Virus record (IMG/VR): IMGVR_UViG_2918987250_000001
Coordinates: 53,523 to 117,522 of that record
DNA: 64,000 nt
From: a virus
Taxonomy: Duplodnaviria > Caudoviricetes
Strand: one strand, 5' to 3'
Part shown: positions 9,401 through 62,607 of the stretch, piece by piece
Position numbering within the stretch: the stretch's first letter is position 1
Layout: each line of letters starts with the position of its first letter
Program-made: the position numbers and the translations under genes
Notes under the pieces: generated by a model
What the model saw: the letters and a program-made list of their open reading frames with translations, nothing else
What the model was told of the DNA's origin: nothing
Database searches by the model: none

Positions 9401-12400
9401 CCTCGATGCCGGCGAGCTGGGCGGCCGTGAGCTGGCCCGCGAGCTGCGCGGCGTTGATGCTCTCGATCTGCGCAGCCGTCAGCTTGCCGATCAGCTTCGT
9501 GGCTTCGATCGCCTCGAGCTGGGCGGCCGTCAGCCTGCCGATCAGCTTCGTTGCCTCGATGGCCTCGAGCTGGCTCGCCTTGAGCTGACCGATGAGCTGG
9601 TTGACGCCCAGGCTCTCGATCTGGTCGGCGACGACCTTGCCGATGAGCTTGTTGGTCGAGATCGCCTCGAGCTGCTCGTCGGAGAGCTGGCCGGCGACCT
9701 TCGCGGCGTCGATCGCCGCGATCATCTCGTCGGTGATGAGGCCCTTGATGTCATCGACCGACACCTCGGCGATGACGAGCTCCCACTTGCCGTTCGTCAG
9801 CCGGTAGAGCTTGCCGTCTTCCTCGTTGGCGATGATCGTCGGGCCGTCGTAGCCGGCGACCGGCGGCAGACCCTTGGACGTGCCGATGAGCGTCAGCCCG
9901 CGAGCAAAGCTCGTCTGGTCGAGAATGCCGGCCGCGATCTCCTGCTTGGTGATCTGCGGGGCGACGGCGCGGGCCGGGCCGACGAAGACCTTGCTCTCGG
10001 CATCCGACGTGTTGACCGTGCGGGCGAAGTAGAAGCGCTCGCCCGAGACCTGGAGCGTCGTGTCCCAGAAGGACTGCTGCCCCTTGCCGGCGCGGCCGAT
10101 CAGCCGGCGCTCGCCGGCCACGGTGTCGGCCGCCCACAGTTCGACGTAGGCGAGATCGACCTGCTTCGGGTCCACCCACGACAGGGAGACGGCGCCGAAG
10201 GTAGCCTCGGCCTCGAACTTCGTGACCGGGTCGGGCGGGACCTCGTTCTTGGCGAGGACGATCTCCTCGATCTCGGACCAGCCGCTCGGGTAGCCCGAGG
10301 TGTTGAGCGCGCGCACGCGCACCTGGAGGATCTCGCCGGCCGGCAGGCGCGAGCGCTCCCACTTGGCGTCCAGCACCGGGTCGCGCGCCCAGGAGAGGTC
10401 CTGCTTGCGCTTGAACTCGATCTCGTAGCTCGCGAAGTTCGGGCTCGGGTTCGCATCCCACTCGGCGATCACGCGGGCGCTCGTGAAGTCAGCGCTGACT
10501 TCACTAATCGTGCGCAGCTTGAGCCCGGTCGGGATCTCGGGCGCGACGTTGTCGATGACCTTGTTGGTGACGAGCACCCGCTGCTCGGGGCTGATATTCA
10601 GCCCTTCCTTGCCGAAGGCGTCGTAGGCGGCGAAGCGGACGTAGTAGTAGGTGTCCTTCAGCACCGGCAGGTTGATGAGCGTGTTCGGCCCGTCGTAGGT
10701 CGGCCGGGTCTTGAGCGGGTCGAAGCCCTGGTCGCGCTCCAGCCACACGAGGCCACCCATCCAGTCGAGATCGGCCGGGCGGTCGTAGGAGACGAACACG
10801 CTCTCGGTCGTCGGACGCACGTCCGGGATAATCATCTCCGGCGCCGGGTTCTCGCAGACGAGCGAGGCCGGCAGGCTCTCGCGCGAGATCGCGTCGCGGG
10901 CGCGGACCTGGACCCAGAACTTGCGGCGCGGGCCGCCGTCGGCGACGTTGCGGTCGAAGCCGTAGGTGAAGGTCGCGCTCGTCGAGAGGTGGTCCGACAG
11001 GAGCTCGCGGCTCTCCAGGTCGAAGACGCGGACCACGTAGTCGATCTCGTAGGGGATCGTGCCCTCGGGCCAGGCGACATCCCAGTCGAGGACGCAGTCG
11101 CGCGAGGAGAACCGACCGCCCTCGCCGCCGCGGACGCGCAGGTTGGTGATGGACGGGCCGGCCAGGCCCTCCCAGCCCTTGATCGTGAAGGCCTTCTCGG
11201 TGGCCTCGGAGCGCAGATTGCCCGCGCCGACGGCCGTGACGTAGACGGTGTAGTCGCCCGAGCGCAGGTCGATCAGCGTCATCGACGGCGCGGTCGTGGT
11301 GCCGAGATCCTGCTCGCCGTCCGGGCCGGCGAGGAAGACGCTGTAGGCGCTCGAGAGCCAGTCGTTGGCCGGCGACCAGGAGATCGTGGTCTCCGTGACC
11401 GGCACGCCGTTGCGGAACGTCTGGTGCTCGCGCACGTCGATGTTCGTGACCGGGCGGATGGTCGTCTTCGGGCGCGTGTAGCGGATCGGGTCGAGGACGA
11501 TGCCTTCCTCGACGCGGGCATACTTCTGGGGATCGTGGAACAGCGCCGCGATCTTGAAGGTGTTCTTCTTGGGCTCGGTGACGAGCAGCACGCGATACTG
11601 GCGCGGGGCGACATCGGTGCCGGTGATCGCCCACATGGCGCCGGGCACGATCGGGCCGGACAGGTCGCTCTCGAGGATGGCGACGAGGTTGTTCTCGGCC
11701 CAGCCGACGATGGCGCGGGTCTCGAGCTCGCCCGAGGCCAGCACGACGGACAGCCGGTAGCTGGAGCCGGCCAGCGGCACGAACGCCTTGTCGAGCGTGA
11801 TGCGGCGCCCGTCGCGGTCGGCCACACGGCCACCGATGCGGGTCTGAGCCTTGCGCGGATCGGCAACCGCGATGATGTCGCCGGGCTTGATCGGGTCCTT
11901 GGCGAGCGCGTCGAGACCCATCTCGAACTCGACCGTCTCGGTCGCCGTGTGCTCGGTGTCGAGCGTCCAGCGGCCGATGCGGTGCGCCATGCCGCGGCTC
12001 GTGCAGCCGTGCGCCTGGATGTCGGTCGAGCGCCAGCCGAAGCGGTCGAGCGCCTCGTCGTGCTGCACGACTTCGATCGCCGGGCGGTAGTAGTCCTCGG
12101 GATCGTTCCACGAGACCATCGCGACCGAGTTGCGGGTCTTCTTGGCCGTGCGGGAATACTTGAAGGCGCCGCCGAGCACGTTGGCCGGGGCGAGGATCTT
12201 CGTGTAGTCGGCCGGCATGTCGGCGACAGCGAAGACCTGCCCGACCGACCAGAAGGCCATGCCGCGGAAGCTCGTCGTGATCTGCTGGAGCACCTTGAAG
12301 GCGTCGTCACGCGAGTTGATGACGCCGTTGTAGGTGTAGCGGGGTTCCTTGCCGCCCTTGCCGTCGTCCACGAGCTCATCGCACCAGCGCGCGATGGCGT

Positions 12401-13427
12401 AGAGGCCGAACTTGTCCACCTTCGAGGCGTCGATGAACTCGCCCAGACCGTAGCGGTTGTTCGTGAGCAGGTCGTAGAAGATCCACGCCGGGTTGTTGGT
12501 CCAGGCGCGCTTGAAGCCGCCCTGCCAGAAGCCGTCGTAGGTGCGGGTCTCCGGGTTGTAGTTGTCCGGGACCTGGATGATGAGGCCCTTGACGTGGAAG
12601 AACCGGCTCGGGATCGACGTGCCGAAGTTCTGCGCGTCCACGACGAGCTTCACGAGCGCCGTGTTCGGGTAGGTGAACTTGCCCTCGACGATCTGGGTGT
12701 AGCTCTCCCAGACCAGCGAGTTCTGGTGCCACTCGACGTTGGCGTCGGGGTTGATCTTGCGGACGCGGATCGACCACGGGAAGCCGTAATCCGGCAGCTC
12801 GATCACCGACGCCTTCTGGTAGGGCGAGGTGGTCTTCTGCTGCTGAAACAGCTCGCGCTTGACCGCTTCCCACTGGCCGCCGTTGGGCCGGCGCTCGATC
12901 ACGTAGTCGAGGTCGGTCGGCAGGAGCGAGCCGTTGTTCTGGTCCTGGATCACCAGGCTCGGGATCGAGGCGATGATGCGGACAGCCGTGGTGTTGCGGT
13001 CGGCGATGACGCGCACGGGCGGCTGCTGGGCCGACTTCACCTCGACGTTGACGGCGAAGGTGGTCTCCGCGGTCGCCGTGCCGGTGAGCATCTCCTGATC
13101 GGGCAGGCCGGTGCGCTGCTCCCAGTCCACGCCCTTGAAGTTGTAGCTGTCGTCCGAGGCGTTCTGGAGCGGCGTCTGGTCGAAGTAGATCGACTTGGCC
13201 CCGTTCACGAGGCCGACGATCTCGCCCTCGCCCAGGACCTCGATGATCTTGGCCTTGGCGTTGGAGCGCAGGGTGTTGTTGGCATCGGACTTCTGCGAGC
13301 CCTTGCCGCCCTTGCCGCCGCCACCCATGAGGCCGCCGGAGCCGACGATCTCGTTGAAATCGGTCGGGACGTTCGAAAAGTCAGTGCTGACTGACTCGTG
13401 AGGACGTGCGTCTTCCATCTCGCTCAT
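6420..13427 (-). CDS. Tail tip / host-specificity protein J (2335 aa) with FN3 domains and decapeptide repeat stalk
   Basis: Lambda J motifs GEGEIVGLVNG, AWTNNPAWIFYDLLTNNRYGLG, EPRYTYNG, GCTSRGMAHRIGRW. True start could be 13328. Confidence 0.93.
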   Translation of the reverse strand: MSEMEDARPHESVSTDFSNVPTDFNEIVGSGGLMGGGGKGGKGSQKSDANNTLRSNAKAKIIEVLGEGEIVGLVNGAKSIYFDQTPLQNASDDSYNFKGVDWEQRTGLPDQEMLTGTATAETTFAVNVEVKSAQQPPVRVIADRNTTAVRIIASIPSLVIQDQNNGSLLPTDLDYVIERRPNGGQWEAVKRELFQQQKTTSPYQKASVIELPDYGFPWSIRVRKINPDANVEWHQNSLVWESYTQIVEGKFTYPNTALVKLVVDAQNFGTSIPSRFFHVKGLIIQVPDNYNPETRTYDGFWQGGFKRAWTNNPAWIFYDLLTNNRYGLGEFIDASKVDKFGLYAIARWCDELVDDGKGGKEPRYTYNGVINSRDDAFKVLQQITTSFRGMAFWSVGQVFAVADMPADYTKILAPANVLGGAFKYSRTAKKTRNSVAMVSWNDPEDYYRPAIEVVQHDEALDRFGWRSTDIQAHGCTSRGMAHRIGRWTLDTEHTATETVEFEMGLDALAKDPIKPGDIIAVADPRKAQTRIGGRVADRDGRRITLDKAFVPLAGSSYRLSVVLASGELETRAIVGWAENNLVAILESDLSGPIVPGAMWAITGTDVAPRQYRVLLVTEPKKNTFKIAALFHDPQKYARVEEGIVLDPIRYTRPKTTIRPVTNIDVREHQTFRNGVPVTETTISWSPANDWLSSAYSVFLAGPDGEQDLGTTTAPSMTLIDLRSGDYTVYVTAVGAGNLRSEATEKAFTIKGWEGLAGPSITNLRVRGGEGGRFSSRDCVLDWDVAWPEGTIPYEIDYVVRVFDLESRELLSDHLSTSATFTYGFDRNVADGGPRRKFWVQVRARDAISRESLPASLVCENPAPEMIIPDVRPTTESVFVSYDRPADLDWMGGLVWLERDQGFDPLKTRPTYDGPNTLINLPVLKDTYYYVRFAAYDAFGKEGLNISPEQRVLVTNKVIDNVAPEIPTGLKLRTISEVSADFTSARVIAEWDANPSPNFASYEIEFKRKQDLSWARDPVLDAKWERSRLPAGEILQVRVRALNTSGYPSGWSEIEEIVLAKNEVPPDPVTKFEAEATFGAVSLSWVDPKQVDLAYVELWAADTVAGERRLIGRAGKGQQSFWDTTLQVSGERFYFARTVNTSDAESKVFVGPARAVAPQITKQEIAAGILDQTSFARGLTLIGTSKGLPPVAGYDGPTIIANEEDGKLYRLTNGKWELVIAEVSVDDIKGLITDEMIAAIDAAKVAGQLSDEQLEAISTNKLIGKVVADQIESLGVNQLIGQLKASQLEAIEATKLIGRLTAAQLEAIEATKLIGKLTAAQIESINAAQLAGQLTAAQLAGIEASKLIGQVVDGQIASVGVGKLAGKITRVQITDGAIASPQIQAGSVHADRLIAYSITAQQIAARAITADQIAVGTLTGNLIAANTITGTNIAARSITAANLVAGTITAGEIMAGAITGDRIAGRTISASNLIAGTITAGEIAARTITGENLAFRSIQAGNIAAGAITAYEVAAYSLTATNIAANQIAAWHIVAGTITSAQIQAGSVHADRLIANSITADQIGANAIRAIHVSASAIEARHIVAYSITAGQIAARTIAAENIAFGTLTGNEIRANSIQADRIVANSITSAQIMAGAIQAAQIAAGAITADKIGVGLGNGNLLFGSDFTNNLGGWVANWWSDGVAPTVSRNGDWAPTGMGSAMVHRPGTPGFGSVADYVLRRRTQTDWVNNYPCVPGRRYELSAYVSVHRCQATVAIQFLNAAGQEVGIAWGNTLETNGANGVLSNWPRSAVFGVAPATAVTMVPICRTTWNGGVDPYTFWTGLYLGNAHANQSAFSPWSPNSSTVIDGGIVATNSLHAEKVIAGTITADKIAAHTITANQIAFYTLTGDYIAANSIYADRIQIGGGNSLTTWLGGPNNTQMNGGYIAANSIAANSLKVGARGLTILGIEFTARKSDSLLSWTSGHIAWVDDNGNQQHTAIAAGSVGWNGWLGVTWFKGRGYLDWSNDGNGGWNRDYAHPDAVPMAFYSGYLGLNVLKGSTIIDGTRIQTGTITANEISAGAIQADKIAAGAIKAEHIGAHQVTADKIGAGTITVSSAIYIGSPRFSLDVPTRMMRVFAPSGTEMVSIGNIGRFWGEGDDGRHGLIIRAPDGNHVMQVDQHGASIAAAYIRDLRVTRAMIDDASINNAKIENGAITSAKIGYLEVDMANIKNGAVSQALAGSWGAGGAQVLGVGVRSHEAKLQIRGIAQNNPNTNWGSRSAGYLHIYFNPDNDGSRRWIIATVAQNFWMDRFLNYYWGTTPIEVVHQPGPGYHSYTIESSTGYAEGMNLSIIELTK
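8460..9720 (-). repeat. Coding tandem repeats (I-T-A-x-x-I-A-A-x-x and ASKLIGQLTAAQLE units) within J
   Basis: Visible in the translation; degenerate 30-nt and 48-nt periodicity. Confidence 0.85.
10483..10504. promoter_or_regulatory. Intragenic operator copy (perfect 22-bp palindrome) in J
   Basis: GTGAAGTCAGCGCTGACTTCAC. Confidence 0.75.
13377..13394. promoter_or_regulatory. 18-bp palindromic operator
   Basis: AAAGTCAGTGCTGACTGA. Confidence 0.7.
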
Positions 13428-41285: not shown

Positions 41286-41455
41286 GCGACCGAGAGCCGA
41301 GCGACTGAGCGCCAAGGGTCCGATCACCGGGAGTTCCGGGGCCTATCCCAAGGGTCCGGGAATATGTGCTGCCGAGACCCGAGGCATAGCCCTCGAGCAG
41401 ACGCGATTTATCTAAGACTTCGTAACTTTACGCTAACTTTTCCGCAAAACACTAT

Positions 41456-41483
41456 GCGAGCGCGCTAATGTTAACGCGCTCGC
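41456..41483 (-). terminator. Hairpin after the first GG-free gene
   Basis: GCGAGCGCG-loop-CGCGCTCGC, built without GG/CC. Confidence 0.55.
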
Positions 41484-41491
41484 TTCTAATG

Positions 41492-42187
41492 TTATGCGAA
41501 GTCTTCAAACATTAGATCATTGCACACTGCGAGAAACTGCTTTAACAGTGCGAACTCTTCGAAGCGATAATAGACGATATGTGCATTTGCGGTGCGTTGC
41601 GCTTCGCTTACATCATGCGTCTTATTCGCTAGATGCTTGACGATAGCGACGTGATAATCTTGCGCATCTTTGGTGCAAGCGAGCACTTCGACATAAACGT
41701 CTTGCATGATAAGCGCAGTGTAGCGCTCTGACATAGCGTCAACGTTATCGAGTTGCGTCGCGTCAGTGCGCATGTCAGAGAAAGCGTTAAACGCTTCTTC
41801 GTTAAAGCTGCAATCTATGCGATATTGCGCTTCGACGTTGCTAAGCGCGCGCTCTAGCGTGTGATGCACCGACGAAAGCAACACATTGATGCTTGACGCT
41901 TCGCTGTCGTTTTCGACGTAGCACGTCTCACAGATAAACGCGATGTGTTCAGCGTCGCTGAAAGTCACCGCAAAATAGTTGCTGTCGTTTTCGTTAGAGA
42001 ACGTCGCGACAGAGCACAAGTCGTTATAGTCTTGAAGCGACAGCATCACAGGTGTTTTTGTGTCGTTGAGCTTGTTATGAATGAAGCGCGCGAAGTCTAG
42101 CGCGACAACATCACGTTGCGCTTTCAGCGGTGCATCAGCGATCTCGAAAGAGACAGCATTCATCTCATGAATATCAGCGAGCGTCAT
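41492..42187 (-). CDS. Acidic early protein lacking Gly and Trp
   Basis: 231 aa with its own promoter and leader. Confidence 0.8.
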   Translation of the reverse strand: MTLADIHEMNAVSFEIADAPLKAQRDVVALDFARFIHNKLNDTKTPVMLSLQDYNDLCSVATFSNENDSNYFAVTFSDAEHIAFICETCYVENDSEASSINVLLSSVHHTLERALSNVEAQYRIDCSFNEEAFNAFSDMRTDATQLDNVDAMSERYTALIMQDVYVEVLACTKDAQDYHVAIVKHLANKTHDVSEAQRTANAHIVYYRFEEFALLKQFLAVCNDLMFEDFA

Positions 42188-42208
42188 AGCGTGTGCTTTC
42201 TGTGGTGC

Positions 42209-42267
42209 GTTGTTGACTAGAGAGTTTTACTGTCGTGCTTGTGCGGTGTCAAGTCAGCGCTGACTTA
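42209..42267 (-). promoter_or_regulatory. Early promoter with abutting operator
   Basis: Operator 42250-67, then TTGACA-17-TAAAAC-6-GTCAACAAC. Confidence 0.75.
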
Positions 42268-42681
42268 TTTCTGCGCTTCAAGCACTTTCTTCGCGCGATC
42301 AATGCGCATCACATGCGTGTGACGCTCGCGCTTGAAGCGCTCGACGTTTGCAAGATGCGCTTTATGCGTCACGTCTAGTTCAGCGGAAATCTCAGCTAGA
42401 CGCTTTTGCGATGCGTCAAGCATCGCTTGCGCGCGCTCGACTGTAAGCGCATTCTTGCGCTTGATATTGTTCGCTTCGTTTTGTTCGCGTGTCTGGTAGC
42501 GCGCGAGCTGTATTTCAGCTTTGCGCAGCATATCGACAAGCTCTTTTTGCGGTAGCGTCATCAGCTCAGCGGTGCGAGCGTTCAGCGTCAACGCGCTTGT
42601 CGCGCTCGCATTCGCTTTGCGACATTGCTCGATCATCGCTTGTTTGCGATGCGCTTTCGATGCGTTGCAGCGCTCAGTCAT
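42265..42681 (-). CDS. Coiled-coil early protein lacking Gly and Trp
   Basis: 138 aa; 33-nt leader/start duplicated with the downstream gene. Confidence 0.75.
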   Translation of the reverse strand: MTERCNASKAHRKQAMIEQCRKANASATSALTLNARTAELMTLPQKELVDMLRKAEIQLARYQTREQNEANNIKRKNALTVERAQAMLDASQKRLAEISAELDVTHKAHLANVERFKRERHTHVMRIDRAKKVLEAQK

Positions 42682-42800
42682 AGCGTTCGCTTTCTGTGGT
42701 GCGTTATTGCGCTCAGAGCGTCACACAGCGCGATGCGTGCGCGTGTCGCTTCGTCGGTGCGCAGAGACGCGCGAAGCGTCTCTGCGGTCGAATGTGAGCG

Positions 42801-43421
42801 CTAGAGCGCGACGCTCAGAGCTTTCGCGAGACGCTTCGTCGTCGGTGCGTCTTTGTTGAGCGTGTAAGCAACTTCGTTCTTGTCGTCGCGCGTCTCTTTG
42901 AGCACGTCGAACATTTGCAGAGCGTTGATGCTAGAGCTTGATTGCGTGTCTGCGGTGCTCGCTGCGATCGAACGCGCATAGCGCACGATATGCGCAGACT
43001 TGTGCGCGTCGCACCGCAAATCAGAGCAGAGCGACGCTTGCGCGTCAGCGTGCGTCATCGACAGCTTTTCTTTGGTCAGCTTCAGCGCAGTGAGAAACAC
43101 ACAGCGCGTGTAATTGTTGAGCGTGTCAGCTTGCGCAGCGCTTCGCGCAATGTTTGCGACTTTCTGCGCAGCGTAGACGTTGAAGCGCTTGTTCTTACGC
43201 TCATGTCTGTTGATGAAGTCAGCGTTGACGTTTGCGGTGTGCATCACGCTAACGACAGCTTCGTGCGAGAAATCTTTCGCGAGATTGCTGAGCGTCTTTT
43301 GAATGTTGTCGTTGTCGGTGTTCTGCGCTTTCTCGTAAGCAGCGCGTGCGCTGATCGAAGTCTGAAGCGCGACGCTGTAGTTATTGAGCGCGTCGATCTG
43401 CTGCGCGTTGAGCTTCGTCAT
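42801..43421 (-). CDS. Early protein lacking Gly and Trp; paralog of 45667-46593
   Basis: Shares NIQKTL, ANV..FINR, R(F/Y)NVYA..KVA and TA.TQ.SS...AL with the paralog. Confidence 0.85.
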   Translation of the reverse strand: MTKLNAQQIDALNNYSVALQTSISARAAYEKAQNTDNDNIQKTLSNLAKDFSHEAVVSVMHTANVNADFINRHERKNKRFNVYAAQKVANIARSAAQADTLNNYTRCVFLTALKLTKEKLSMTHADAQASLCSDLRCDAHKSAHIVRYARSIAASTADTQSSSSINALQMFDVLKETRDDKNEVAYTLNKDAPTTKRLAKALSVAL

Positions 43422-44075
43422 AACTGTGTCTCTCTCTCGTTTGTGGTGTGTTTGTCGTGTCGTTGTTGACGAGAGTTAGAATAGCGATCTGCGAGAGAGG
43501 CACAAGCGTCAAATGATAGAAAAACCGAAAAAAGTCAGTTCGCGCTGATTTTTTCCGAAAAACGCATTTTCTCGCGTTTTCGGTCAAAAAGTCAGTTGAC
43601 GCTGATCTGCGTGCGTGTATACTCAAGACATCAGAGAGAGACAGAGAGCTAGACAGATGAAACGAAGTTGACCGCAGAGCACCGCAGAAGAAAATCAGAA
43701 AAAGCGACGCGCTCGACTAGACAACAAGCGAGCAAGCGTGTAGCTTGACCATAGAGCAGACGACTCGACAGCGACGCACGACCCCAGACTGGGGCCGGGT
43801 GCGGGCGCGGCTGGCTCGGCGCCGCCCGCCCATGGGGCAGCCATGGGAAGCCGTGGCTCAGGCCGTTCCGAATTTTCCCGACAGCCGTTCCTAATTTCCG
43901 CGCCCCAGATTTTCGCACCGGTCCCATGGCATCCCGAGGCGCTCCACGGCGACCGGACCCATGGCGCCCCACGCGACACCCATGGGAGAGCCGGAGATGG
44001 TCCATGGCGCCCCATGCAGCTCCACGGGTCTCCCATGGCGTCCCATACTCTCCCATGGGGGAATGCACGCACGCG

Positions 44076-44101
44076 AAAAGCGCGCTGGGGCTCAGCGCGC
44101 T
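44076..44101 (-). terminator. Rho-independent terminator
   Basis: AGCGCGCTGAGCCCCAGCGCGCTTTT on the minus strand. Confidence 0.7.
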
Positions 44102-44112
44102 CATCTGGGGCT

Positions 44113-44409
44113 CTACTCGGCGAGCAGGGCTTGCTGGCGCATCAGCTTCGCGTGACGCTGCTGCGAGCGGTTCATGCGGCGATCGAGGCGCGACTTGGCG
44201 TAGAGCATCTTCTGGCGATGCGCGCGCAGCGCTGCGGGGCAGGTCTCGTCGGTGGTGATGAGCGAGAGCTCGTGCTTGGCGCGACGCATGGCGACTTGCA
44301 GCTCGTTCGAGTGGGCTCGCTGGGCGCGCACGGTCTCGTCGTTGACGACTTCGAGGTAATCGGCGCACTGGGCGAAGCGAAGGGCGATCTGCTTGATGAA
44401 CTTCGTCAT
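44113..44409 (-). CDS. Basic early protein lacking Gly and Trp
   Basis: 98 aa with own promoter and terminator; no GG on the coding strand. Confidence 0.75.
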   Translation of the reverse strand: MTKFIKQIALRFAQCADYLEVVNDETVRAQRAHSNELQVAMRRAKHELSLITTDETCPAALRAHRQKMLYAKSRLDRRMNRSQQRHAKLMRQQALLAE

Positions 44410-44449
44410 GGTCGGCACTTGCTCTCTTGTCTAGCAGCGGTGTCGCTGC

Positions 44450-44492
44450 GTTGTTGACAAGTATGTTTTAGCAAGTGCGCAGAGTTTTGTGC
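44450..44492 (-). promoter_or_regulatory. Early promoter, GCACAA class
   Basis: GCACAA-16-TAAAAC-6-GTCAACAAC. Confidence 0.75.
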
Positions 44493-44695
44493 GCGGAGCG
44501 TTATGGCAATACTTGCACGGCACTGGGGCTGTATGGGCGTCCGGGAGCGGATGTGCGGCTGTGGGGTTGCTCGAGGCCGAGAGGCAGTGGACCGCGTCGA
44601 GGCCTAGCGGATCGAGGTCCTCCCATGGCCGGTAGGCCTACAGGCCTGGCCTAGAGGCCTGCATCCATGGCCTGCCATGGGGAGGCTTGGTCACG

Positions 44696-44724
44696 AGAAG
44701 AGAGCGCACGGGGCGCTCTCTCTT
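44696..44724 (-). terminator. Hairpin terminator
   Basis: AGAGAGCGC-loop-GCGCTCTCT directly after the stop at 44730. Confidence 0.6.
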
Positions 44725-44729
44725 GGGGC

Positions 44730-45344
44730 TTAGGCAGCAGCGGTGCGGTAGTCTTGCGGAATCGTCTCGTGGACGACGAGCGCGTTCGCGTCGCTCTCGG
44801 TCACGAGGATCTGCGACAGACCCCAGGTCGTGCTCTCGAGGGAGATGTAGGTGACGGGCTCGTTCACAGCGGGGTCGAAGTCGCTGTTGACGCGCACGGC
44901 GGTCGTCGGGTCTGCGAGGAACGCATTGGCGATGCGATCGACTTCACCGGAGAGCTGGGCGCGCAAGCTGGGCGCATACTGGGGATCGTTCTTGTAGATG
45001 GGGTCGCTCTCGGCGTGCATCTTCTCTTCGCAGTCGAAGACGATCGTCATGGACTCGCGGAGCTGCGCGACAGCTTCTTCGACGGTCTCGAACGCGAGGA
45101 TCGTCGTGTTGTCAGGACCGCAGTCGAGATAGGCGAACAGCGTCTTGGACGCGCTCGCAGCGATCAGCGCATGGGTGCGCTCGTTGGTCTCGTAGATGCA
45201 CTCGTCGTCGCTCAGGTCTTCGTGGGGCGACGTGTTGCAGGTCACGCTCGGGCACGCATTCTCGCGCTCTGTGAGCGTCACGCTGATGTCGAGGTAGGTG
45301 AAGGTCTCGGCGTTGGTGATGGTGGTGTTCTTGGTGATCGTCAT
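44730..45344 (-). CDS. Acidic early protein (only 3 Gly, all GGT)
   Basis: 204 aa with own promoter and terminator. Confidence 0.8.
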   Translation of the reverse strand: MTITKNTTITNAETFTYLDISVTLTERENACPSVTCNTSPHEDLSDDECIYETNERTHALIAASASKTLFAYLDCGPDNTTILAFETVEEAVAQLRESMTIVFDCEEKMHAESDPIYKNDPQYAPSLRAQLSGEVDRIANAFLADPTTAVRVNSDFDPAVNEPVTYISLESTTWGLSQILVTESDANALVVHETIPQDYRTAAA

Positions 45345-45366
45345 GTCGCTCTCTCTGGTGCAGCTC

Positions 45367-45409
45367 GTTGCTGACAATCTCGTTATAGCGATGCTCTCTT
45401 GCTTTGTGC
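45367..45409 (-). promoter_or_regulatory. Early promoter, GCACAA class
   Basis: GCACAA-16-TATAAC-6-GTCAGCAAC. Confidence 0.75.
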
Positions 45410-45630
45410 GCGGCGAGGTATGGGCGCTCTAGGATCGCTCAGGAGCGCTGGGACCGGTCTGGGAGCGGGGAACGCCGCCCCATGGGGCTCCTCGGGGCTC
45501 CACGGCCGCCCACGGCGATCCATGGACGCCTCCCATGGGGAGCCACGGGCGGCCCACGGGCTCCCATGGGTCTCGTGCGCTGGGGCGCCCCAGCCGTTCC
45601 TATTTTTCCCATGGGCGGATTCGATCACGA

Positions 45631-45656
45631 GAAAGGGGAGCCCCGTGAGGCTCCCC
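45631..45656 (-). terminator. Rho-independent terminator
   Basis: GGGGAGCCTCACGGGGCTCCCCTTTC on the minus strand. Confidence 0.75.
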
Positions 45657-45666
45657 AGACTGTCGA

Positions 45667-46593: not shown

Positions 46594-46797
46594 TTGTTTG
46601 TCGATCCTTATCTGATGAAGCACTGCGCTTCGTTTCGACAAGTATCGTTATGACGACTCCAATACCCGGTTGCACTTGGCACGTTATGGGGATTTGCGAT
46701 TACTTATGGGAGCCGGAGCCCTCGGCAGCCCATGGCGTTCCATGGGGAGGCGCGGATCGTGAGGGGCCGGGAATAGTCGTGCCCTAGCTCCAAAACG

Positions 46798-46856
46798 CCA
46801 TCGGCCTGTTCTTAGATATATACCTTTAGAGAAGTAGATACATAACAGGCCGATGG
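46798..46856. repeat. AT-rich core (35 nt) flanked by 12-bp inverted repeat, copy 3
   Basis: CCATCGGCCTGT-[AT-rich]-ACAGGCCGATGG-ACTTGG. Confidence 0.9.
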
Positions 46857-47619
46857 ACTTGGGAATCCAACCCCGGCTCGGGAATCCATGGGTCTCGGTG
46901 AGGGAGAGATGGGTCCGGCTCTGAGTGAGCGGCACCGGTCCATGGAGACCCGAGGGCTCCCATGGCTTGCGAGGCTCCGGCACCCGCGGCCGTTCCTAAA
47001 TTCGGGAAGGCTTGACCGGGACCGGACCGGGTCTCTGACATTCGAGGGGCGCCAATCCCTCGCACTCACCGGTCCGGTCGCAGCGTCAACAACGCCAGAG
47101 CACCACAGAGAGACAGGGTGCAGGAGCGCATCGGCGAACGCGCTCAACTGACGCTGTGATCTATGACGACCCCGCGCGAATTTTTCAAATGGCGTCGCAA
47201 GGCGTGAAAACGGGCTCGTGCGTGGAGATTGGGTGCGGCCGGCCTCTCGCGTGTTTCCCAGGCTCTCGATCTCTCTAGGCACTCTCTGCGCATTCTCTGT
47301 GAGGCACCTCTCTATGGGCTCACACAGGCACACGGGCTCTCTCTAGGGGCTGCCTCTCTCACACACCTGTCCCCGTATGCGCTCTATGCGTCGGAGCTGC
47401 TCTCTAGGGGTCGTGTGTGCTCTTCTCTCTCTGTGACGCGCTCTCTGGTGCGTGCTCTCGCTCTCTATGCGGGCGTGCTCTCTGGTGCGCGACGTTGCTC
47501 TGTGAGCGCTCTCTCTAGCGTCGTGCGTGTCGTTGCTCGTTCTCGTGCGTGCTGATGCTCAGCGGTCGATTTTGGTGAGGGTGGTCGGTTTGTCCAGAAA
47601 TGCGCAAAACGGGTTTCTG

Positions 47620-47737
47620 ACCGGACAAATGGGGGACATCCAGGGGACATCTGGGGGACGTTTTGGGGACAAGTGCCCGATGTTCGTATTGGACGCTCGG
47701 GGGACGTTTGAGGGACAGCTTGTCCCCTGGTTGTCCG
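47620..47737. repeat. GGGGAC-type repeats at 11-bp period (iteron-like)
   Basis: GGAC at 47623/34/45/56/67 and 47691/702/713; inverted GTCC at 47722/33. Confidence 0.75.
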
Positions 47738-47786
47738 GTGGCCTGCAGGTGGTGGACGGCCTCTCTTGGCCGGGACCTGCCTCGAC

Positions 47787-49006: not shown

Positions 49007-49329
49007 GCTGCTTCCTTCTCCTCGAAATCCAGCGGGTCGAAAAGGTAGAGGCACTCGTTCGCATCCTCGAGGATGTCGTCGCCCACGTAGACCCAGCGCT
49101 CGATCGCGGCCGAGACGGTGAAGGGCAGCGCCTTGAGGGCGGTCACGAGGCCGGCGATCTCTGCCAGCGTCGGCGCCACGTCGCGCGAGAACTCCAGGTC
49201 GCGCTGCCCGAAGCCTGCGCCGGCCCCGCTGAACTCGAAGCCGAACTCATCGGCGATGGCATAGATCGGGTCGTCCTCACCCTCGCCGTAGAAGCGGTGG
49301 ACGTAGAGATCGTGGGTGACGGTTTGCAT
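49003..49329 (-). CDS. Hypothetical acidic protein
   Basis: First gene after an early promoter; SGAGAGFGQRDLEF. Confidence 0.65.
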   Translation of the reverse strand: MQTVTHDLYVHRFYGEGEDDPIYAIADEFGFEFSGAGAGFGQRDLEFSRDVAPTLAEIAGLVTALKALPFTVSAAIERWVYVGDDILEDANECLYLFDPLDFEEKEAA

Positions 49330-49349
49330 CGAGTCGCTCTCGCTATGTC

Positions 49350-49392
49350 GTTGCTGACACTGCATTTATAGCAATGCCAGCACGACTTGTGC
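49350..49392 (-). promoter_or_regulatory. Early promoter, GCACAA class
   Basis: GCACAA-16-TATAAA-6-GTCAGCAAC. Confidence 0.75.
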
Positions 49393-53670: not shown

Positions 53671-53682
53671 GCTCGTCTCCGG

Positions 53683-53700
53683 TGAGTCAGCACTGACTGA
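53683..53700. promoter_or_regulatory. 18-bp palindromic operator
   Basis: TGAGTCAGCACTGACTGA. Confidence 0.7.
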
Positions 53701-53716
53701 CAATTATGTTTATAAC

Positions 53717-53965
53717 TCAAGCACTTACGGGTAGCTCTTGGGGTCTCGTGGCAGCTTCGCGGAAGCGTTCGTAGTGGGGCTCGAGGTGCCCGCACACGCT
53801 CTTGTCGAGACTGGCGTCGGCGAGCGGCGCCCAACCGGGGCCGTAGCAGGCGATGCAGAGGAAGCGGTCGTAGTCCCCGCTCTCCCAGTCACCATCCGAG
53901 GGTTTGGCGTCGATCAGCTCGACGTGTTCGGCACACCCGCAGCCGGCGCAGGTGAGGAGCGCCAT
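53717..53965 (-). CDS. Small Cys-rich protein
   Basis: CxxC...CxxC. Confidence 0.5.
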   Translation of the reverse strand: MALLTCAGCGCAEHVELIDAKPSDGDWESGDYDRFLCIACYGPGWAPLADASLDKSVCGHLEPHYERFREAATRPQELPVSA

Positions 53966-62533: not shown

Positions 62534-62560
62534 CGCCTTCCCCTTGTTGTTGCTCGTCGC

Positions 62561-62607
62561 TGATAAGTCAGCGCTGACTTATCATAGCGCGAACAGCTCG
62601 GGGTTTC
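62561..62607 (-). promoter_or_regulatory. Promoter with perfect 24-bp operator downstream of -10 (SLT gene)
   Basis: GAAACCCCGA-9-GC-TATGAT-AAGTCAGCGCTGACTTATCA. Confidence 0.75.

Follow-up and report, generated by a model that had tools for sequence, protein, structure and literature searches.

A few early transcription units of a RHEph10-like phage-plasmid are purged of GG on the RNA-like strand

The virus record IMGVR_UViG_2918987250_000001 (Duplodnaviria; Caudoviricetes) is a 117.5-kb genome of 66% GC that is complete by CheckV; the window analysed here, 64,000 nucleotides in length, comprises its bases 53523–117522, and all positions given below for this phage are those of the window. 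Within it, active selection at the nucleotide level has purged a few self-contained transcription units, chief among them those of the genes P0004 and P0005 (together ‘tier 2’, Table 1), of the dinucleotide GG on the RNA-like (sense) strand, while CC has been kept there at normal density. The banned word in this phage is GGV (V being any base but T), GGT being tolerated, and the purge has been strong enough to remove glycine (Gly), tryptophan (Trp), CGG codons, G|G junctions between codons and the usual GGAG ribosome-binding site. Whether a factor that has so far gone undescribed, be it a strand-borne DNA mark impassable to host RNA polymerase or a dinucleotide sensor, reads a short word (sense GG, template CC) while the incoming phage DNA is transcribed, and whether the phage-plasmid family has rewritten its first genes, even to the point of Gly-free proteins, to escape it, is in our judgement evenly balanced.

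Throughout the P0004 unit (44055–44540, minus strand) there is no sense GG, as compared to 31.1 expected from base composition (0/2000 shuffles), and there are 49 CC; on the plus strand, accordingly, CC is missing from 44053 to 44541. The P0005 unit (44680–45453) contains 5 sense GG as compared to 51 expected, a count that none of 2000 base-composition shuffles reached, and 78 CC; CC on its plus strand is confined to 44821–44823, 44947 and 45118, i.e. to three GGT Gly codons, one of them preceded by TGG. The counts for these two stretches and for 43620–43780, the confinement of CC to the three Gly codons and the lack of Gly and Trp in the 98-residue P0004 product had all been pointed out by a first-pass annotation made from the letters alone, and all are borne out by our recount and by the translation. 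The per-gene, per-strand comparison with codon-shuffled controls that it had called for never reproduces the asymmetry: for both genes, 0/500 synonymous shuffles, 0/500 codon permutations and 0/500 resamplings of the genome’s codon usage attain the observed sense GG, and sense CC is at, or only slightly under, the values of these codon-level controls. Junctions of the G|G type are absent from P0004 (0 vs 10.2 expected), which, together with the failure of every shuffle to match, means that the constraint works at the nucleotide level. Similarly, none of the 13 arginine codons of P0004 is CGG or AGG (26% in the background), and P0005 encodes its three Gly by GGT throughout, a choice made in 10% of cases in the genome, where GGC accounts for 72%. 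In no other gene of the 117.5-kb genome does the density of sense GG drop under 40 per kb (median 79). The tier-2 sense strand is composed of C and G at fractions of 0.37 and 0.25, respectively, and the GC content of third codon positions (GC3), 0.87–0.89, is that found elsewhere in the genome.

The two units are built alike. In the direction of transcription, each consists of a window free of GG and CC that carries a −10 box of the GCTAWAA type and the motif CGTTGYTGAC, a GG-free, GAGAG-like ribosome-binding site, the gene and a terminator hairpin, and the zone of zero sense GG runs from 55–62 bp upstream of the −10 box to 10–15 nt beyond the hairpin; the 55–62 bp stretches upstream of the tier-2 −10 boxes contain no sense GG and 16 sense CC. 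The early units are parted by arrays of YCCCAYGG / CCATGG repeats, spaced by roughly 10–11 bp, and 21 of the 36 CCATGG sites in the genome are located within 43–47 kb; the arrays probably serve a regulator as binding sites. A GG-free variant of the array repeat, CGCCCATAC, lies ~50 bp upstream of both tier-2 promoters. CGTTGYTGAC occurs seven times in the window (0.2 expected), always in the interval that separates the −10-like box of an early unit from its start codon, and may serve as an operator or as a 5′ leader element common to these units; among its carriers, the genes at 49.0–49.4 and 50.3–50.6 kb are not depleted of GG.

The polarity of the purge follows the direction of transcription. 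As the first-pass annotation had noticed, the asymmetry flips downstream of a rightward promoter: on the plus strand of 43620–43780 there is no GG (12 expected), and the three CC present are all ACC. Its broader proposal, that the constraint tracks transcription, agrees with the inverted islands of related phages (see below) and with two opposed promoters, each of which is followed by a leader without sense GG (Table 1); the leaders are homologous neither to each other nor to any Rfam family. Immediately upstream of the second promoter, the minus strand of 47620–47740 carries ~6 copies of another repeat, (A/T)TGTCCCC, at a position that in the Rhizobium phage V1VFA-S (locus L001, 8540–8680) is occupied by repeats of GACCTTTACA. 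A further part of the proposal, relaxation with distance from 41.4 kb, is not supported: P0006 (45.7–46.6 kb) is of normal composition, yet at 47.4–47.6 kb a sense-GG-free stretch appears again, and because this second leader lies beyond P0006 the pattern is patchy, with no decay with distance from 41.4 kb. That GG is excluded from the sense strand only is true of the two units and the leaders of this phage; it does not extend to certain genes of two related loci, L013 and L014, in which sense CC alone is depleted.

Next to the P0004 unit lies a single island, the only one of its kind in the genome, in which both dinucleotides are nearly absent from both strands (‘tier 1’, Table 1). On the sense strand of 41394–43600 there are 6 GG as compared to 130 expected and 21 CC as compared to 166; what remains is ACC in 19 of the 21 instances of CC, and GGT and GGA in four and two, respectively, of the six instances of GG. 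In the intergenic stretch 43500–43620 we observed two copies of AAAAAGTCAGTT(C/G)(G/A)CGCTGAT as well as inverted TTCCGAAAAA / TTTTCGG elements; these hold nearly all GG and CC left in that part, which suggests that the residues are functional sites.

Both dinucleotides are also avoided together at promoters. Across the genome, ~40 windows of 42–100 bp at promoters and 5′ untranslated regions (5′UTRs) are free of GG and CC (examples in Table 1), as compared to 13–20 such runs in Markov-simulated sequence (genome-wide, island included). Many of the windows carry GCTATAA and GAGAG-type ribosome-binding sites, and they include the untranscribed, variable 10-nt spacers of CCCG-N10-GCTATAA promoters. 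A polarity common to all promoters was considered and rejected: downstream of CCCG-N10-GCTATAA, sense GG and sense CC make their first appearance at equal distances (8 vs 4, n = 12). Given that the windows are over-represented, take in the spacers and have no clear polarity, a DNA-level constraint exists at promoters, and the one-strand rule is special to few early units.

The trait is conserved in the RHEph10-like phage-plasmid family. The portal protein of the phage is 50–56% identical to those of the Rhizobium phages RHEph10, V1VFA-S, B1VFA and RHph_N1_10, and ~54% identical to that of Klebsiella SSU5-like phages; our searches found no near-identical phage record. RHEph10 appears in a published survey of phage-plasmids (PMC7969092). 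We compared three GenBank phages (L001–L003) and 14 IMG/VR loci, 13 of them distinct, that is, 16 loci. In 15 of these (all except L005), an island of 0.6–1.7 kb with essentially zero GG and CC is located downstream of the P0006 homologue, and its orientation relative to that gene varies. The dinucleotides left in inverted islands follow the gene (14 sense GG vs 44 CC), and in co-oriented islands the leftovers amount to 6 sense GG vs 17 CC, with L006, the start of which is probably miscalled, excluded. Genes depleted of sense GG only are present as well in L001, L011 (GG 0, CC 25), L013, L015 and L004, the last being a P0004 homologue with partial depletion (18 GG vs 35 expected), and sense-GG-free runs are found upstream of the P0006 homologue in L001, L002, L003, L006, L007 and L017. 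L005 (921–2641) is the closest relative by P0006 (72% identity) and lacks the island; the CC content of its P0003 orthologue is normal (58 vs 65 expected) and GG is half-depleted (17 vs 34), so the constraint has undergone a natural relaxation there. Taken together, the leftovers, the GG-only genes and L005 indicate that sense GG is the orientation that is more strictly and more persistently banned. In L013, normal genes stand between the depleted gene and the island, and the order is thus not monotonic; arrays resembling the YCCCAYGG / CCATGG ones flank the units of this locus (10840–10990 and 12860–13030). Reading frames in the relatives are intact, with protein identities of 39–65%, or 22–28% for the two most distant copies. 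Tolerance of GGT/ACC as a rule of the whole family was rejected: it holds for this phage only, and the leftovers of the relatives stand in mixed contexts. Outside the 16 loci, the Klebsiella phage ST13-OXA48phi12.3 (L019, 33850–34990) has a merely two-fold (approximately) depletion of GG and CC, in an AT-rich stretch downstream of helicase and regulator genes.

As to the proteins, P0003 and the C-terminal domain of P0006 are paralogous (32% identity, E = 1e-24), and each of the two subfamilies is conserved throughout the phage family. A P0003-family gene is present in the island of nine relatives; the family is devoid of Gly or proline (Pro), and in the alignment it mostly has Asn, Asp, Ser or Lys in place of conserved Gly. 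The AlphaFold model of P0003 has a predicted local distance difference test (pLDDT) score of 95.7, and its residues 86–205 align to winged helices of the MarR/ArsR/histone-H1 type (Z 7–8.2 over ~78 residues, root-mean-square deviation 2–3 Å), although scores of this order are common background; Foldseek returned E values of at least 0.06. The predicted C-terminal half may thus resemble a winged-helix DNA-binding domain, a likeness that is suggestive only. For the function of P0001–P0006, Pfam, PHROGs and NCBIfam yielded nothing beyond weak, sub-threshold matches. No early protein has an accepted Pfam family, and the two marginal PHROG matches are both of no assigned function. P0001 has no relatives in phage records; P0003 matches in the protein atlas only large clusters of hypothetical proteins; P0004 has one weak sub-threshold Pfam match and no PHROG family; and P0005 has neither relatives in viral contigs nor a usable protein-atlas match.

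What could impose such a rule? The first-pass annotation preferred a cause related to RNA polymerase or to mRNA over restriction-site avoidance, and a one-strand rule does not, indeed, agree with plain avoidance of restriction sites or of protospacer adjacent motifs (PAMs). The strand rule does require that the factor either tells template from non-template DNA or reads RNA. Our preferred explanation, held tentatively and with less than even confidence, is an obstacle borne by one DNA strand at 5′-BCC-3′ (B being any base but A), the complement of GGV, that blocks the host RNA polymerase when it is on the template. One DNA-acting factor, carried by one strand, would then be behind the GG/CC ban in both the island and the promoters. 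The obstacle might be a chemical mark, a nick or a lesion; on the template it would stop or corrupt the host RNA polymerase, and on the non-template strand it would be harmless. Units that are read from the incoming DNA would keep their template strand clean, yielding tier 2, and promoter DNA, along with stretches in which both strands matter, would be cleaned in both orientations, yielding the promoter windows and the island. We favour such an obstacle on three grounds: promoters are clean in both orientations and gene bodies in one, the asymmetry extends into untranscribed DNA, and what the island tolerates is, whichever way round, one double-stranded word, ACC/GGT, the GG inside genes being GGT. 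In clustered regularly interspaced short palindromic repeats (CRISPR) interference, oriented DNA-bound obstacles obey the same rule: either strand works at promoters, but within a gene a target has to carry its PAM on the template strand in order to block. The sigma-70-family sigma factor and the ATP-dependent DNA ligase encoded in the genome are compatible with a DNA obstacle and are no evidence for it.

Several observations weigh against the strand-borne obstacle. The CheckV-complete genome lacks PF01702, PF06508, PF00145, PF01555, PF00583 and PF00303, all of which were matched in control genomes; it contains no TGT/DpdA, QueC, C5 or N4/N6 methyltransferase, GNAT Acetyltransf_1 or thymidylate-synthase-like protein, an enzyme of a new family being possible, and a 379-residue protein considered as a GNAT found no support in Pfam, NCBIfam or the PDB. 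Reading of the template alone does not explain the asymmetry upstream of the promoter. Two well-formed genes of relatives have the opposite depletion, L013 12526–12828 (2 sense CC vs 18 expected) and L014 5503–5748 (4 vs 20), with GG normal in both and 0–3 of 500 shuffles reaching the observed CC; neither an obstacle at template BCC nor a pure sense-GG rule predicts them. No homologues of these two were found among the loci compared, so that the case for their being real genes is their coding signature (GC3 0.82). Finally, L019, which is SSU5-like, has the same ParB-ParB-ABC ATPase-acyltransferase-terminase module as this phage, yet has no island.

The main rival to an obstacle on DNA, which we consider rather unlikely, is a factor acting on RNA: an endoribonuclease or RNA-binding protein, either host-derived or made early by the phage for host shut-off, would recognise GG (GGV) in single-stranded RNA, and the first transcripts, being GG-free, would survive; CC would be missing from the island because it is transcribed on both strands. 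Such a factor would account well for a purge that follows the RNA-like strand, stops just beyond the terminators and takes in 5′UTRs, ribosome-binding sites (GAGAG for GGAG) and non-coding leaders, and the promoter-like sites on the plus strand at 41542–41571 and 43596–43623 could give rise to antisense or divergent transcripts of the island. It sits badly with the promoter spacers free of GG and CC and with the 55–62 bp upstream of the −10 boxes, both untranscribed as judged by the predicted starts, as well as with the purge of CC in the island and promoter windows and with the genes of relatives depleted of sense CC only. To our knowledge no GG-specific bacterial RNase has been reported, and the literature searched yielded neither such an enzyme nor a GG-binding RNA factor. 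The CC-depleted genes are easier to understand if it is the presence of both orientations of the word in one unit that is harmful, each gene dropping the one that its protein can spare, as might be the case with a strand-specific nickase, two opposed cuts by which would amount to a double-strand break, or with CC..GG half-site elements such as the CCATGG repeats. Both polarities do exist, CC-poor genes keep Gly and Trp (Pro 0–1) and GG-poor genes keep Pro (Gly 0–3), and every unit is flanked by CCATGG-type arrays. We nevertheless consider this improbable: by our tally roughly 15 units or leaders lack sense GG as compared to 2 depleted of sense CC, the polarity flips with the direction of transcription, the total removal of GG far exceeds what avoiding CCNNGG sites (~7.6 per kb) would need, and the adjoining arrays are dense in both orientations.

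An RNA-guided host complex that needs 5′-CC-3′, as type I-F does, and stands in the way of transcription as a polar roadblock would reproduce the observed polarity, with both orientations purged at promoters and sense GG only inside units, a PAM on the template strand being equivalent here to sense GG. It is, however, a very doubtful candidate, as a cleaving CRISPR system would still find PAMs by the thousand in the remaining 113 kb, tolerance of GGT/ACC is no known trait of the I-F PAM, and the phages that share the trait differ greatly in both sample of origin and GC content. Symmetric PAM depletion, whether of CC for type I-F or of NGG for Cas9, is not what we see, for tier 2 retains 49 and 78 sense CC and the island tolerates GGT/ACC. 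Defence enzymes acting on short single-stranded DNA motifs exist, and the GG-free strand is the non-template (sense) one, which would be the strand displaced, and open to attack at GG by e.g. a DarT-like guanine ADP-ribosyltransferase of the host, in heavily transcribed early genes; but lesions elsewhere in the genome would be equally harmful, DNA upstream of the promoters, which is not melted, is equally asymmetric, and the CC purge of the island is left without a reason, so that we give this little credence. Hardly credible at all is an origin without special selection, whether through codon bias, GC skew, the amino-acid make-up of the proteins, horizontal transfer of recent date or a former island gene that is slowly relaxing. 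In its favour are the small size of the proteins and an excess of C over G on the sense strands; against it stand a GC3 like that found elsewhere in the genome, the recurrence of the trait in relatives, and the base-composition and codon-level controls, which rule out composition, codon bias and GC skew. A lag in the relaxation of former island genes was rejected, CC at synonymous sites being at equilibrium and GG at 0 vs 11.4 expected. Avoidance of RNA structure was rejected as well: the mRNAs of tiers 1 and 2 fold at most ~5 kcal/mol per 100 nt more weakly than codon-resampled controls, and those of P0002 and P0003 not more weakly at all. Avoidance of restriction palindromes does not agree with a dinucleotide that is absent from one strand only (GG 0 vs CC 49 in the P0004 unit), and GC and CG, hence also GCGC-type sites, are commoner than expected. 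Neither does the strand bias associated with Type III enzymes, for the orientation rule here is local, flips between the two leaders (43630–43790 vs 47594–47374), and the arrays carry both orientations.

The coordinates of all features are collected in Table 1. The assembly is linear and without end repeats, and no tRNA genes were found in the window.

Table 1. Features of the window and their dinucleotide counts. GG and CC are counted on the sense strand for units, genes and leaders.
Feature	Position	Strand	Remarks
Structural genes	1–36.7 kb	-	
Plus-strand gene block	36.6–41.3 kb	+	
Early-type genes (putative class)	41.5 to ~59 kb	-	
Tier 1, island	41394..43780	both strands	nearly no GG/CC; ~50% GC
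P0001, island gene	41492–42187	-	product without Gly
P0002, island gene	42265–42681	-	product without Gly
P0003, island gene	42801–43421	-	product without Gly, single Pro
Sigma-70-like promoter	43596..43623	+	TTGACG-16-TATACT; 10/12 consensus positions
Leader or non-coding transcript	43630..43790	+	A/G-rich, 9% T; GG 0 vs 12 expected, CC 6
Array A1, inter-unit spacer	43791..44054	.	YCCCAYGG / CCATGG repeats; GG 31, CC 44
Tier 2a, entire P0004 unit	44055..44540	-	zero sense GG
P0004 terminator hairpin	44074..44102	-	GG-free stem, then UUUUCG; fold -27.4 kcal/mol, z = -3.0
P0004 gene	44113–44409	-	98 residues; no Gly, no Trp
P0004 promoter/5′UTR window	44440..44495	-	no GG and CC; CGTTGTTGAC motif at 44449–44458; GAGAG-like ribosome-binding site
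Array A2	44541..44679	.	CCATGG-type repeats; GG 20, CC 15
Tier 2b, entire P0005 unit	44680..45453	-	sense-GG-depleted
P0005 terminator-like hairpin	44698..44722	-	GG-free stem; fold -18.1 kcal/mol, z = -3.1
P0005 gene	44730–45344	-	204 residues, acidic; 3 Gly (all GGT)
P0005 promoter/5′UTR window	45358..45412	-	no GG and CC; GCTATAA-type -10; CGTTGCTGAC motif at 45366–45375
Array A3	45454..45660	.	CCATGG-type repeats; GG 35, CC 32
P0006 gene	45667..46641	-	normal composition, contains Gly; GG 56 vs ~60–68 expected
Further array	46700–47030		YCCCAYGG / CCATGG repeats
Second leader	47594–47374	-	A/G-rich, 6% T; GG 0 vs 16 expected, CC 14
Second sigma-70-like promoter	47596–47569	-	
CGTTGYTGAC copies	42208, 43461, 44449, 45366, 47085(-), 49349, 50557		
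GG/CC-free windows (examples)	49322–49377, 53682–53729, 62543–62600		

When phages avoid a motif, the avoidance is as a rule symmetric and directed at sites of 4–8 bp. In the present case the ban falls on two bases of a single strand within defined transcription units; it dictates amino-acid content and replaces the ribosome-binding site, and our full-text literature searches found no description of the phenomenon. If real, the cause, be it a DNA mark, a GG-reading nuclease or a binding protein, would represent a new layer of phage–host conflict. Among strand-asymmetric systems, the bias by which phage T7 escapes the Type III enzyme EcoP15I also permits an asymmetric word in one orientation; the T7 bias, however, is genome-wide and concerns a 6-bp site, whereas here the word has 2–3 bases, the rule is local to units and flips with direction, and the arrays bear both orientations. 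The first-step-transfer region of phage T5 is similarly a small block of presumed first-expressed genes with a make-up distinct from the rest; the likeness comes from the gene block alone, and not from a terminal position or two-step injection, we saw no homologues of A1, A2 or dmp, and we know of no dinucleotide-level or strand-specific purge in the T5 pre-early region. CRISPR interference by dCas9 or Cascade, in which an oriented obstacle blocks initiation both ways and elongation one way, is an analogy of behaviour only. Retroviruses exposed to APOBEC3G are depleted of GG on the sense strand only and enriched in AG through GG-to-AG changes, but that is mutational damage that creates stop codons, unlike the intact, conserved frames kept here by selection.

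Other parallels are found at the level of RNA. T4 RegB targets GG-containing ribosome-binding sites of early mRNAs, but it needs GGAG and destroys early messages instead of sparing them. ACA-less mRNAs escape the word-specific endoribonuclease MazF, as GG-free ones might escape a nuclease here, although ACA-less genes are engineered and no corresponding nuclease has been identified in our case; if the factor exists, it might serve as a tool in the manner of the ACA-less expression systems. The closest resemblance in kind is to animal viruses, the transcripts of which suppress CpG in response to ZAP and UpA in response to RNase L: there too a two-letter word is purged from the RNA-like strand, at synonymous sites and beyond, since the factor reads the word. 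The present case differs in that the word is GG, the virus a bacteriophage and the purge limited to few early units, in that Gly is lost and untranscribed promoter DNA is affected, and in having no known reader. Should the RNA-sensing version nevertheless prove true, bacteria would for the first time be seen to possess an equivalent of the antiviral factors with which animals sense dinucleotides.

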